This document shows, piece after piece, positions 55,601 to 58,600 of a stretch of DNA of 64,000 nucleotides. The position numbers and the translations under genes are program-made. The stretch's first letter is position 1; every line of letters begins with the position of its first letter. Source of the stretch: an uncultured bacterium (lineage in GTDB: Bacteria; Oederibacteriota; JAAXVQ01; JAUVAV01); assembly GCA_965371665.1 (NCBI GenBank), contig CBDUZI010000001.1, positions 9,411 through 73,410 of the forward strand, read 5' to 3'. The notes below the pieces were generated by a model that worked only from the letters and a program-made list of their open reading frames with translations, did not search any database and was not told the DNA's origin.

Positions 55601-58600
55601 AGGACAGGCTGGTTAATCGCCCGCGGAGTACCGGCTTCTATTTTGTGGGTTACATGGCCTTCATCATCAATACGTATAAGGGGTTCCCGCGAATCAACCC
55701 AGAGCTGGTAATCGTGGTTAAAGGCTGCCTCGGTTCCATACGTTATGTCAGCTTCGTAGGCTAAGGCGCGGTCAAAGCTTTTAACCATCTTTTCCCCATC
55801 CCAGATGCTTACCACTGGCTGAGAGCTTTCCAAGTCATACTCACCTACGATGGCCACCGTGATGCCTAGAGGGGCTAGCAGGACTGCCATTTCCTCCCCT
55901 TGTTTAAGGGCTAAATCGATGTTCGGTGTGGACAGTTTAGTGCCTTGATTCAAGAGAGAGACCGCAAAAAGGCCCATGGCCGCGGCCTCGGTCTTGCCCT
56001 GGCCTGTTGCCAGTTGGAGGGCATATCCCACTGTGTCGATAGCCGGAATATCCGAGCGGAAGAGCAGGCGCACGAAATAAAAAACTTTCCTCCAGCCGCG
56101 GCGTTGCCTCATCTCAGAAAGAGCCAGGGCTGCCATGATTTGATTGCGATGCAGGGTAAAGCCTTCCAGCCGGATGCGGCTTTCAGGGTCGGATTCGGAC
56201 GCGGCCTGATCTCGTTTTTGTTTTTCAATGGTCACAGCGGCGATGGTCAGGGCTCGAATTCTTAGCGTTTCCAATGCCTGCTTGGCTTCTGCCAGATCCA
56301 TCCTTTGCAACTGCCTGCGGAGCCGATCGGTTTCCGCAAGCAGTTGAGGGAGGGACATTTTTTCAAATTGTACCCGGAGTTTGTTAACCTGGTTCGCCTG
56401 ATCACGAAGTTTGATCGTGGTTCTGCGTGAGGCAAAGGCCTGGTAGCGGGGCATGGTAAAATGATAGATGAACCAACCTCCGGCAATTAAACCGCTGGCG
56501 ATAAAAAACAGCCATGAGCCCAGGCCGACAAGAACCAAGCCGGTGACCAACCCTGCTGCCAATTGACCAAACTGCACGATCAGATAAAGTGAACTTACGA
56601 CACCGGCTGCCACTACCGGCATGACCAGATACGGCAAAAATCTTCCGGCCAGAGTCCTGAACTGTTTCTGGACTGTCACTAACTCGAGCCGCATCCGCTG
56701 TTCAGCCAGGAGGGCGCGGACGTGATCGATCACTGCGATAACGGCCCCCACTAGAATGAGAATGCAAATGCCCGTGCCTAAGCCTAAGCCAATCGCTTGC
56801 GGCAGCAAGATAATGACCGTTACGATGATGCCTCCCACCACCGGAAGTCTTTTGAAAATTTTGGTAAAATAAGCCTGAGTCTGTTCCCCTTCAGGTATAC
56901 CGGGAATATAATCACCGCTAATGGCAAGCTGCTCGGCCAGGGTCTCGGGCTTGAAAAGCATTCGAGTTCCTAAAACCGAAAAAAGCAGGATGATGGCAGC
57001 CACCACGAACACATAAGTCAAGGTCATAGGCGCGAGGACCACGCCAAACAAGGCGGGGGCTAACATGATAAGCATGGTGATCACAGCGCTCGACCCTATG
57101 GCCGCTACCACGCCAAAATAATCCATTTGTAGGGGCAGAATGCGTTCGCGCGGCTTCTTTTGCTCTGTTTGTTTAACATCCCGCGCCGACCGGATGGAAA
57201 TTTTATAGTATATCGTGTTCAGGGCAATCGCGAGAGCAACGGTGGCCAATCCTCCGATAAGGATAGGCAGACCGGAGAGGGAAAGTACACTGCCAGAAAC
57301 CAAGATTCCAGCGGTGTGAAGCAAATTCGGCAATACCATCACTCCGAACAGAACATAATTGGTCCGGCCGCCCAAGCCGCGCTTCTCTAACTGTGTCATG
57401 AACCATAATAAGACGACAGAGCCCAAGGTCAGACTAATAATCGCGACCAGTTGACTGCCCAAGGTTACAAAAATGTCAGGCATGGCTTGCACGAGCAGTA
57501 CAGCATATATCACTGCAATCCCAACCGAAATATATTTAATGTAGCGCTGGACCTGTTTTCGTCCGATTTCAGTTTTTTGAAGTTTTTTCAGAGGTGGAAA
57601 AACCAGGGTAATGCCCATTATAATCAAGCTAGCTAAGAAAAAGGGAGCCAGTCCCAGGCCGAAGATGGAAAGATTATCCAACGCCCCGCCTAGCATAAAG
57701 TTCATCCCACTCAGCGCCGCCGCATCGTTCAACCTTAGAAAGGTAAATAAAACCGGACTTACGCCTGGAATCGGCACACAGCAACCGATGAAATAAAGGC
57801 CGATAACACCTATTGTAATCAGCCCTCGTCTAACCAACACCCAGGGAATGCCTTGACTAAAGCGACGGAAGTAGATAACCGCATCTTCCTTGGCAGCCTG
57901 CATCCACTCCCGCCAGTTTAGTCTTTGTTCCACGGCAGGTTCCGCCGGCTCCCCGGCGGCGGTTTCCTGAACTACTCTCTGGGACGGTACGCTAGGTGCC
58001 TCTCCGTATATCCGGGTTATTTCCTCAATAGCTTTGGCCAGTTCATCGGGGCGCGAATCTCGAGTACGGAAATCCACAACCAGACGGTTGGCGTCTCTCA
58101 CAATTTTTAACAAAGTCTGGTTCAAAGCGGCTCGATCTACGGTTTCACCTCTGGCCAGATGCTCGTAGAATCTGCCTAACTGGGTAAGTTCGCTGGCCAA
58201 GTACTTCCCGGTTCGCTGCAAATAGGCCAGATAGGCTGAGCGTTCTTCCTCAGAAAAATACGCCATGCCTTCAGCAGTGTGGCCATATAGATAGGTTAGT
58301 TCCTGATCCAACAGCCATGCCTTTTCAACTAGAACGGCTTTTGCCGATCTGGCAATTTGAAGTCTTCCATGTGATTTTAAGTCGCGCAGGCGGGTATTTC
58401 GCGCTTCCCGAAAATCCTGCATGGTCATCCAAACATCCGTGCCTTCTAATTCTATATTGAGTTTCGCTATCGCCATTGCCAGTTCGGACGGCCTCATGCC
58501 CCGGCGCCGAAAATCCACGTTTTGGAAATCCCCTCTGCGGCGGCCGGCATCGAGCGTGATGTGAATCAAGGTTTTATTTAAGGCTGCCCGATCCAGGGCC

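Follow-up and report, generated by a model that had tools for sequence, protein, structure and literature searches.

SecY is usually regarded as a universal, stand-alone housekeeping gene; canonical secY is free-standing, has about 430-450 codons and typically ends the ribosomal-protein operon, and free SecY is unstable without SecE. The accessory Sec system of Gram-positive bacteria provides a second, divergent pair, SecA2 and SecY2, dedicated to very large surface proteins and serving a few dedicated substrates. Autotransporters (type V secretion) unite cargo and their own membrane-crossing device in one polypeptide, the device being an outer-membrane beta-barrel that uses no ATP. In an engineered fusion, the C-terminus of SecY was joined through a linker to the N-terminus of SecA, and this fusion, active in proOmpA translocation with SecE and SecG, equalled the separate proteins in vitro (PMC5562318); the SecY-C/SecA-N topology is therefore known to work. 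SecA_DEAD domains were reported in giant proteins by West-Roberts et al. (bioRxiv 10.1101/2023.11.21.568195), who suggested a role in self-export and asked how these domains are anchored to the membrane. In that study SecY is named only as part of the separate housekeeping SecYEG, transmembrane (TM) segments near SecA are considered possible anchors, and the scaffold/wing domain is stated to be missing. A natural SecY domain that lies in a multidomain protein and is covalently joined to SecA was not described in the literature searched.

The whole stretch of DNA analysed here, 64,000 nt and hereafter called the window, carries a giant open reading frame (ORF) with a cellulase-like domain in its visible N-terminal part.

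25663..63852, minus strand: giant ORF of 12,729 codons (ORF translation), with ~62 hydrophobic TM-like segments arranged in clusters
62632..63345, minus strand: GH5 cellulase-like domain at residues ~170-407, close to the N-terminus of the visible ORF (PF00150, E=5.8e-06; 26.4 bits, cut-off 23.5)

The ORF comprises 38,190 bases without an in-frame stop codon, and the 49 further codons up to the window edge (63999) are also stop-free, giving a protein of at least 12,778 aa; since no stop occurs in these 49 codons, the 5' end of the ORF is probably cut by the window. Outside the SecY-SecA module described below, Pfam detected GH5 alone and a sequence search of the PDB gave no match. Between the TM clusters lie hydrophilic regions whose lengths range from hundreds to about 2,500 residues, and internal repeats are present in the N-terminal part. 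A cluster of ~11 TM segments at ORF residues 8464-8883 was considered as a second SecY and rejected (hhalign probability 0.5%). Neither ribosomal-protein genes nor SecE or SecG were found in the 64,000-nt window.

A sequence-only reading of this DNA had proposed that a full-length SecY-like channel is encoded at 57880-56690, in frame and internal to a protein of more than 12,000 aa, and this proposal was borne out by the uninterrupted ORF, by Pfam and by a PDB search. The coordinates were off by no more than a few codons: codons start at 57879, 57876 and so on, so that a translation begun at 57880 runs into stops, while the in-frame translation is clean and contains all the motifs on which the proposal had been built, namely VPIPG, GGALDNLSIFGLGLAPFFLASLIIMGIT, LLWFMTQLEKRGLG and FKPETLAEQLAISGDYIPGIPEGEQTQAY.

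56677..57852, minus strand: embedded SecY domain, ORF residues ~2001-2392, with ten TM helices, a plug region with a GG motif and the pore-ring residues L, F, T, L, I, I

The SecY family model PF00344, which had been suggested as a check, matched the domain over profile positions 1-304 of 306 (E=5.7e-41), at 141.3 bits where the gathering score is 32.2. The likeness to E. coli SecY, previously judged by eye, was recovered by phmmer against the PDB (E=1.4e-35 to 2.7e-35), with residues 17-423 of 443 aligned. Mean pLDDT was 76.0 in one AlphaFold2 model and 83.8 in another, most of the SecY part exceeding 80, and the best Foldseek matches in the PDB were all SecY (E=6.6e-19, target-normalised TM-score 0.77-0.84). 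The domain has the ten-TM fold of the SecY/Sec61-alpha superfamily. It is also a divergent member: the NCBIfam equivalog model for housekeeping SecY (TIGR00967) was covered over profile positions 3-410 of 414 but scored 149.1 bits against a cut-off of 253.6. The SecY2 models failed as well (TIGR02920, 90.1 bits against 249.6; NF009082, 96.7 bits against 353), and both of their scores were below that of the canonical SecY model. In its gene context the domain is not a free-standing secY, being located inside the 12,729-codon ORF. Word-indexed protein searches matched only free-standing SecY (at most 30% identity) or canonical SecA (22-26%), and the alignment query returned no match in them.

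Downstream of SecY in the same ORF, we found two TM helices, a linker of ~120 aa and a collinear SecA motor, which the sequence-only reading had missed.

56455..56655, minus strand: two extra TM helices straight after SecY TM10, ORF residues ~2405-2428 and ~2435-2463, modelled as helices by AlphaFold (pLDDT 63-78)
56098..56454, minus strand: charged, family-conserved linker of ~120 aa that shares 43-48% identity with relatives; AlphaFold predicts a helix for its first ~15 residues
53173..56097, minus strand: SecA-like ATPase motor, ORF residues ~2586-3560, with NBD1, an enlarged PPXD-like insert, NBD2 and a helical-scaffold region with a two-helix-finger motif
55981..56013, minus strand: Walker A, LATGQGKTEAA, from alignment to canonical SecAs
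55651..55674, minus strand: Walker B region, RIDDEGHV (canonical SecA, IVDEVDS), by alignment
54217..54252, minus strand: helicase motif VI equivalent, FGRVARQGLRGF (canonical LRGRSGRQGDPG), by alignment
53281..53328, minus strand: two-helix-finger motif, NLRMFLKNRDPLMRYK (canonical LRxYxQxDPLxEYK), the finger-tip position being occupied by an aromatic residue (Phe)

In the SecA part, Pfam detected PF07517 (57.5 bits against 24.6) and, as a borderline match, PF21090 (27.2 against 27.0). SecA_DEAD and P-loop domains are thus present with intact Walker A and B motifs. The part is collinear with Thermotoga maritima SecA and seven canonical SecAs through TGQGKT, DDEG, GxHQALQAK, GRVARQG and the two-helix-finger motif. 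Residues 273-525 and 744-821 of T. maritima SecA align collinearly, LRMFLKNRDPLMRYK being aligned with LRSYGQKDPIVEFKK; the local alignment of the two-helix-finger/HSD segment is weak (3.4 bits), and a MAFFT alignment agrees with it. The SecA_PP_bind and SecA_SW models were not detected by Pfam in the window protein, and PP_bind was detected in the relatives P0046 and P0044. The motor failed the NCBIfam SecA equivalog (110.2 bits against a cut-off of 814) and the SecA2 models (41-99 bits against cut-offs of 725-1100). The C-terminal zinc finger (a CPCGSGKKYK-type tail) is absent from the SecA part, where the chain runs on into the giant protein. Because the C-terminal end of SecY is cytoplasmic and the two tail TM helices return the chain there, the SecA part would be cytoplasmic, and TM counting of SecY and the tail is consistent with this placement. 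The tail helices are conserved in the family; a SecE-like role for them is a conjecture, and similarity to SecE was detected neither by Pfam (E<=10) nor by a PDB profile search.

The expectation that such an arrangement is highly unusual was confirmed by an exhaustive HMMER scan, in which 1.84 billion cluster representatives yielded about six clusters of the family. SecY and SecA occur in one protein in three of these (P0042, P0043 and P0046), and the relatives' SecY domains also pass the PF00344 gathering score. The other SecY proteins among the matches listed were 254-530 aa long, the size of free-standing or partial SecY. Among the protein searches, only the exhaustive scan of representatives recovered relatives. 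Single-protein scans of genome and metagenome contigs and an alignment scan of metagenome contigs gave no loci. Two of the five loci obtained with alignment A3 (L008 and L009) proved to be ordinary SecA genes outside the family. The order SecY, two TM helices, linker and SecA recurs in P0042/L005 and L006 (both candidate division FCPU426), in P0043/L007 (Ca. Firestonebacteria), in L004 and in P0046, the last with an extra insert of about 300 aa. The fusion is thereby found in at least five other independent assemblies, from FCPU426, Ca. Firestonebacteria and unbinned contigs.

Identity of the module to its relatives is 34-65%, lowest in the tail helices (34-40%) and highest in SecA NBD1 (55-65%). 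When the SecY part was compared with the N-terminal flank in three relatives, identities were 45, 40 and 48% for SecY against 39, 20 and 21% for the flank, the value of 39% belonging to P0042. Of all parts of these proteins the module is thus the best conserved, a pattern that suggests selection on it. In phylogenetic placement, which the sequence-only reading had called for, the embedded SecYs formed their own monophyletic clade, supported by neighbour-joining bootstrap values of 1.0 (core five) and 0.815 (all six). They share 23-31% identity with free-standing SecYs and 20-50% among their own lineages. No donor lineage for the embedded SecY could be named, the nearest free SecYs being taxonomically scattered.

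In our view, the SecA ATPase fused directly downstream adds weight to the earlier suggestion of a built-in translocation pore. We propose, with a rough probability of 0.55, that the giant ORF encodes a whole translocase, its SecY and SecA covalently joined, that pushes later parts of its own polypeptide through the membrane. Insertion of the SecY domain and of the ~2,000 residues N-terminal to it would fall to the ordinary Sec/YidC machinery of the cell. The tethered SecA motor would then be docked, at a fixed 1:1 stoichiometry, against the cytoplasmic side of the SecY domain to which it is joined, and ATP would drive later segments of the giant polypeptide (its own or that of sister copies) through the private channel, where the SecY domain would conduct them. 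The parts pushed would be the hydrophilic stretches, hundreds to about 2,500 residues long, between the TM clusters. The housekeeping translocon could in this way be spared a substrate that needs many minutes to make. With ~2,000 residues ahead of it, the module cannot be what exports the N-terminal part, GH5 included. A more far-reaching version, which we consider tentative and rather doubtful, is that of a self-sufficient "autotranslocon", in which the downstream ~9,000 residues are threaded in cis through the protein's own SecY pore by its own SecA motor, the first tail helix replaces SecE and no separate Sec subunits take part; by extension, the TM anchors before SecA in Omnitrophota and other giant proteins could be cryptic SecY domains. 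If this version were true, a built-in translocon would be a general export solution for proteins of 10,000 to 80,000 residues.

The pore, gate and docking residues of the SecY domain were compared by alignment. The E. coli positions I82, I86, I187, I191, I278 and I408 correspond to L, F, T, L, I and I in the window SecY, which would form its pore ring. Across the embedded SecY family, bulky hydrophobic residues occupy five of the six pore-ring positions, five of the six embedded SecYs retain the plug GG motif, and the core PG..G..T..Y of the C5 loop persists.

56878..56919, minus strand: C5 cytosolic loop, SGDYIPGIPEGEQT, in which the near-universal Arg (E. coli R357) is Pro

In E. coli SecY, R255, R256 and R357 are basic residues of the cytosolic loops that dock the ribosome, FtsY and SecA (PMC3575545). 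The C4 positions equivalent to R255 and R256 are Thr and Glu in the window SecY, and R357 is retained in two of the six embedded SecYs as against 65 of the 72 free ones. The equivalents of R242 and Y429 are also lost, and the lateral-gate positions (E. coli F279, S87 and I90), like Y429, differ from the near-invariant residues of free SecYs. In terms of sequence, loss of the docking arginines fits a channel that no longer recruits soluble partners, which on our reading would be because its motor is tethered. In E. coli, R357 and the C4 arginines are important for coupling to SecA as well, so that a domain without them may just as well have ceased to work as a SecA-driven channel.

In an alternative reading, the SecY fold would be a membrane anchor only, a non-conducting ten-helix scaffold holding a SecA-derived ATPase with another task, for example remodelling or unfolding parts of the giant protein or feeding the housekeeping translocon. 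The loss of R255/R256/R357 and Y429, the several altered lateral-gate positions and the equivalog score far under its cut-off (149.1 against 253.6 bits) are in keeping with it, as are the failure to detect a SecE-like partner and the suggestion by West-Roberts et al. that adjacent TM regions anchor SecA. However, a simple anchor would have no need of the ten helices, plug GG, hydrophobic pore-ring positions and C5 core that are kept across lineages only 20-50% identical, and in each of the three relatives examined the SecY part exceeds the N-terminal flank in identity. In addition, the paired SecA appears to keep its polypeptide-handling parts, the PPXD-like insert and the two-helix finger, which would point to translocation. 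We regard the anchor as unlikely.

A working SecY-SecA channel might instead act as an accessory translocon for other clients, with the giant protein serving as a platform that puts export beside its own extracellular enzymes. On the same strand, the genes that follow directly code for proteins that look secreted or surface-located (a Por_Secre_tail/FlgD_ig protein and S-layer-like, Fn3-like and OmpA-like proteins) and could be such clients; a sugar ABC importer is also encoded downstream. Dedicated accessory Sec systems do exist for very large adhesins, and export of "accessory proteins" was also raised by West-Roberts et al. On the other hand, a general accessory channel needs no covalent tie to a polytopic protein of 12,700 aa, and the SecY2 and SecA2 models do not accept the module. 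A separate secA2, asp genes and glycosyltransferases beside a serine-rich substrate were looked for among the other genes of the window, and none was found. The flanks moreover vary between relatives while the module is kept, which ties it to the giant-protein context and not to fixed neighbour genes. We consider an accessory role rather improbable.

The module could also be released as a separate product, a free SecY-SecA fusion of ~1,600 aa arising by internal initiation just upstream of TM1 or by proteolytic processing. An SD-like GGGAG precedes an ATG at 57902-57904, about 18 codons ahead of TM1, but this ATG is not conserved, P0042, L006 and P0047 having no Met there. Promoter-like sites (8, against 5.1 +/- 2.2 in shuffled sequence) and terminator-like sites (9, against 7.1 +/- 2.3) are not enriched. 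Cleavage of giant precursors by a C39 peptidase was proposed for some giant proteins by West-Roberts et al., whereas a Pfam domain search detected no peptidase domain in the giant ORF. Furthermore, homology to P0042 runs in frame and unbroken across both module edges, from ~850 aa upstream of the module to ~300 aa past the end of the SecA motor. Release of a separate product appears highly unlikely.

Finally, an artefact, in which a canonical secY (with or without secA) was mis-assembled onto unrelated sequence, as the sequence-only reading had cautioned, or genes were merged by frameshift errors, is suggested by the metagenomic source of the contig, the proneness of giant genes to assembly problems, the internal repeats of the N-terminal part and the visibly frameshift-broken relative L004, but has a negligible chance of being correct, since 38,190 bases are stop-free in frame, the same SecY-SecA order and junctions occur in the independent assemblies from different studies and phyla, three relatives lie on contigs that form a single open frame from end to end, the SecY is non-canonical in identity (23-31% to free SecYs), clade and sub-equivalog score, and errors break ORFs, as in L004, and do not create them.

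If the module works as we propose, it would answer, for this family, how SecA-like domains are held at the membrane and how giant proteins are exported. It would also be natural evidence that one SecY and one SecA suffice for translocation, which was previously argued from engineered fusions (PMC5562318), and a co-evolved SecY-SecA pair without docking arginines would be a natural experiment on motor-channel coupling. As a practical matter, a family-specific profile can be used for finding further such modules in metagenomes.

Compared with housekeeping SecYEG and SecA, the module has the same two folds and, judged by the retained motifs, probably the same chemistry, but the two are encoded by separate genes there and belong to a single chain of more than 12,700 aa here. 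Its SecY differs from that of SecYEG in lacking the docking arginines and Y429 and in the two extra TM helices after TM10, no SecE or SecG was found in the window, and its SecA lacks the C-terminal zinc finger of housekeeping SecA. The engineered SecY-SecA fusion (Sugano et al. 2017, PMC5562318) shares the order, the topology and the 1:1 stoichiometry; it consists of canonical E. coli-type parts with an artificial 16-residue (GGSG)4 linker and no other domains, whereas the natural module has two TM helices and a conserved linker of ~120 aa and is located inside a giant protein. In the accessory Sec system, SecA2 and SecY2 are separate proteins, and the locus includes Asp proteins and glycosyltransferases, of which none was found in the window; with the SecY2 and SecA2 models, the embedded domains score lower than with the canonical ones and stay far under the cut-offs. 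The giant Omnitrophota proteins (West-Roberts et al. 2023) share a length above 10,000 aa, many TM segments, a divergent SecA_DEAD after TM regions, glycoside-hydrolase content and neighbouring carbohydrate-import genes. In contrast to those proteins, the TM region here is demonstrably SecY, a weakly matching scaffold/two-helix-finger motif is detectable, and the named relatives are FCPU426 and Firestonebacteria. Autotransporters are a conceptual analogue only, with no homology; the module here would be an inner-membrane alpha-helical channel with an ATPase. Among these systems, the SecY-SecA module is best read as a new form of a known machine.

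The SecY region lies entirely within a giant ORF (25663-63852, minus strand, 12,729 codons). Since the frame stays open through a further 49 stop-free codons up to the window edge, the giant protein is 12,778 aa long or more and probably begins outside the window. Across the whole ORF, four Pfam families only were detected, namely a GH5 cellulase-like domain, SecY, SecA_DEAD and the SecA P-loop domain.

Features of the giant ORF and its surroundings
62632-63345, minus strand: GH5 cellulase-like domain (PF00150; Pfam, barely over cut-off), near the visible N-terminus
56690-57880, minus strand: SecY domain
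53173-56097, minus strand: SecA-like ATPase, complete but very divergent, directly downstream of SecY in the same ORF
37204-38463 (ORF aa ~8464-8883), minus strand: dense cluster of ~11 hydrophobic helices
261-25338, minus strand: same-strand genes downstream of the giant ORF

The proposal of the sequence-only reading that a SecY-like channel is internal to the giant protein was confirmed by Pfam, PDB sequence and fold matches to SecY. Translation from 57880 runs into stops, as the true phase begins one base on; every motif the reading had quoted was found in the in-frame translation. The SecY profile (PF00344) matched with E=5.7e-41; the 141.3 bits exceed the gathering score (32.2), and the match covers positions 1-304 of the 306 in the profile. 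In a phmmer search of PDB sequences, E. coli SecY was matched at ~1e-35 with residues 17-423 of 443 aligned, followed by the Thermus, Thermotoga, Geobacillus and Methanocaldococcus SecYs. An AlphaFold2 model based on an alignment of 41 free-standing SecYs had a mean pLDDT of 76.0, and a second model with tail-covering family members added reached 83.8 with a pTM of 0.78. The top Foldseek matches in the PDB were exclusively SecY/Sec61 chains (target-normalised TM-scores 0.77-0.84), with T. thermophilus SecY as the best (E=6.6e-19).

SecA_DEAD was detected by Pfam ~100 residues past SecY (E=1.7e-15), and the SecA P-loop domain scored 27.2 bits (cut-off 27). When the 1,220 residues after SecY were searched against the PDB, the matches were SecA proteins only. 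T. maritima SecA (3DIN_A) was collinear with this region through NBD1, the preprotein cross-linking region and NBD2; the alignment was weak in the two-helix-finger part (T. maritima SecA residues 744-821). Equivalents of the SecA motifs were read from a MAFFT alignment that included seven canonical SecAs.

SecA motifs in the window protein
Walker A: ATGQGKT
Walker B: DDEG (canonical DEVD)
Conserved motif of the PPXD–NBD2 region: GTHQALQAK
Motif III: SAT (canonical TGT)
Motif VI: GRVARQGLRG
Two-helix finger: LRMFLKNRDPLMRYK (canonical LRxYxQxDPLxEYK)

The window protein has no C-terminal zinc finger of the canonical kind, because the chain continues into the giant protein. Two hydrophobic helices follow SecY TM10 (ORF aa ~2405-2428 and ~2435-2463); a charged linker, ~120 aa long and predicted to be helical at its start, then leads into SecA. 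As the C-terminal end of SecY is cytoplasmic and two more helices follow it, SecA is placed in the cytoplasm, as an ATPase must be. Sequence searches of the tail helices for SecE similarity were negative, and a SecE-like role for them is a conjecture.

To find relatives, 1.84 billion cluster representatives were scanned exhaustively by HMMER with the 1,200-aa SecY-to-SecA stretch. Two proteins matched it end to end: P0042 (3,157 aa, 51% identity; a partial protein from a candidate division FCPU426 MAG) and P0043 (2,037 aa, 41% identity; from an unclassified bacterium). The same scan gave three fragments (P0044, P0045 and P0047) and the more divergent P0046, and Pfam placed SecA_DEAD after SecY in P0042, P0043 and P0046. 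Apart from P0085, which matched in the SecA part only, the other matches listed were SecYs of free-standing size (254-530 aa, most 400-470) with at most 36% identity. The three fragments share one ENA contig (L004, ERZ25039480 contig_62891), on which the N-terminal half of SecY, its C-terminal half and SecA follow in this order at 7500-12600 in alternating reading frames, which looks like a giant gene split by assembly indel errors or a decaying pseudogene. When GTDB species representatives were scanned by pattern, with a module alignment of three sequences as query, three loci were obtained: L005, which is P0042; L006, from a second FCPU426 MAG (CSMAG_2803; 45% identity); and L007, from a MAG of Ca. 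Firestonebacteria and identical to P0043 as read over the module region. Each of these contigs is short and a single open frame from end to end. The window protein and P0042 are collinear and 44.5% identical across 2,747 residues (ORF aa 1149-3878), and therefore homology extends well past both module edges. Upstream of the module, L006 (1-1850) carries a different N-terminal region, ~20% identical to that of the window, in which a glycosyltransferase-like stretch and a HEKAH motif were seen by eye. Across lineages, differing N-terminal parts seem to be joined to the module.

The six embedded SecYs grouped as one clade in a neighbour-joining tree that also contained 72 free-standing SecYs; the bootstrap was 1.0 for the core five and fell to 0.815 once P0046 was included. 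The core five share 29-50% identity among themselves and embedded SecYs 23-31% with any free SecY, compared with a mean of 37% among free SecYs. The free SecYs closest to the clade belong to unrelated phyla and therefore point to no particular donor lineage. In NCBIfam, the domain was nearer to SecY (TIGR00967, 149.1 bits, cut-off 253.6) than to the accessory SecY2 (TIGR02920, 90.1 bits, cut-off 249.6; NF009082, 96.7 bits, cut-off 353), and it fell under all equivalog cut-offs; the SecA part scored 110 bits with NF009538 (cut-off 814). By sequence, the embedded domain belongs to the SecY superfamily and is neither a housekeeping SecY nor a SecY2.

The module is the conserved core of the family.

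Identity of the window protein to P0042/P0043/L006
SecY: 45/40/48%
NBD1: 65/55/55%
N-terminal flank: 39/20/21%

Aligned to E. coli SecY, the pore-ring positions of the window protein are L, F, T, L, I and I. By this alignment, all family members keep a bulky hydrophobic residue at five of the six positions, with family-specific choices (I86 to F in 5/6 members, I191 to L in 5/6), and the plug GG motif is retained in 5/6 embedded SecYs. The cytosolic face, in contrast, is altered.

Cytosolic-face residues (E. coli numbering)
R357: in 65/72 free SecYs; P in the window protein, kept in 2/6 embedded SecYs
R255/R256: T/E in the window protein
R242: in 65/72 free SecYs; never Arg in embedded SecYs
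Y429: in 65/72 free SecYs; never Tyr in embedded SecYs

In E. coli SecY, the basic cytosolic-loop residues R255, R256 and R357 serve to dock ribosome, FtsY and SecA (PMC3575545). In our reading, the embedded channel would no longer recruit ribosomes or soluble partners via the canonical surface and would have a co-evolved interface with its tethered SecA instead; the same residues also allow that coupling was lost altogether. The SecY fold might be kept purely as a membrane anchor. Changes at docking residues and at lateral-gate positions, together with the lack of any detected SecE, support this; against it, all ten helices, the plug and the pore ring have been retained despite deep divergence.

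Alternatively, the module could export other proteins, such as the surface-type ones encoded downstream of the giant ORF. There, two sugar-type ABC permeases and a solute-binding protein are encoded together with a 1,738-aa DUF6259/NPCBM-associated protein and FlgD_ig/Por_Secre_tail, S-layer-like, Fn3-like and OmpA-like proteins. This carbohydrate-import neighbourhood is like that of giant genes as described. GC dips to ~0.38 at 14001-16000 and 22001-24000, compared with ~0.50 across the giant gene and values of 0.43-0.53 in other stretches, and 22317-23495 contains no ORF of at least 120 aa. A separate product, released through internal initiation or processing, is a further alternative. An SD-like GGGAG followed by ATG (57902-57915, minus strand; ATG 57902-57904), 18 codons before SecY TM1, could allow internal initiation, but of five relatives compared, three lack the Met (P0043 has it), and neither promoter- nor terminator-like sites show enrichment. 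The mis-joining of a canonical secY, which the sequence-only reading had raised, is effectively excluded by the same fusion in independent relatives and by homology past the module edges; the SecY-SecA fusion is real and inherited.

Throughout the giant protein, ~62 hydrophobic segments are clustered, with hydrophilic stretches of up to ~2,500 residues between them. The cluster of ~11 helices had no Pfam match, PDB match or SecY-profile similarity and may be a second transporter-like domain of no known family. Over the ~9,000 residues past the SecA motor (25666-53172, minus strand), there were zero PDB sequence matches and no Pfam family above threshold. The GH5 domain is consistent with the cell-wall/polysaccharide-degrading theme of other giant proteins. 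In the N-terminal part, 60514-60813 and 63616-63915 are 78% identical in DNA at a spacing of 3,102 nt (1,034 aa), repeating a TM-helix block and the sequence '...AQYAQAAEKGNK.IGYIFWNVIFCEFLAH.WD...'; as the first copy reaches the window edge, further copies may exist upstream. A second duplication within the ORF (61652-61951 and 62075-62374) is 85% identical at a spacing of 423 nt.

In the Sec pathway, SecA is needed for large extracytoplasmic loops of membrane proteins. This need, the long hydrophilic stretches and the activity of an engineered fusion led us to propose a role for the module as a private translocon driven by ATP, in which SecY:SecA would be fixed at 1:1. Whereas the analysis establishes domain identities, order, conservation and motifs, we infer an active pore on which the tethered SecA docks; the substrate would be later segments of the same giant polypeptide, or of sister copies, moved across the membrane, and insertion of the SecY domain and of the ~2,000 residues before it would fall to the housekeeping machinery. 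A related idea was put forward for SecA domains of giant Omnitrophota proteins by West-Roberts et al. (bioRxiv 10.1101/2023.11.21.568195), who described them as lacking the scaffold/wing domain, asked how they are anchored, and cited SecY only as separate SecYEG. In a survey of Omnitrophota giants from 2026, an architecture cluster with PF07517 is listed and SecY is not. Within the literature searched, the coverage of which was incomplete, no paper describes a SecY domain that occurs naturally in a multidomain protein, nor a natural SecY-SecA fusion. The module is a Sec translocase variant of new architecture, built into a giant membrane protein of an FCPU426/Firestonebacteria-like bacterium, and would surprise specialists. 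Its order is the same as that of the engineered fusion of the SecY C-terminus to the SecA N-terminus, which matches the separate proteins in proOmpA translocation in proteoliposomes (PMC5562318).
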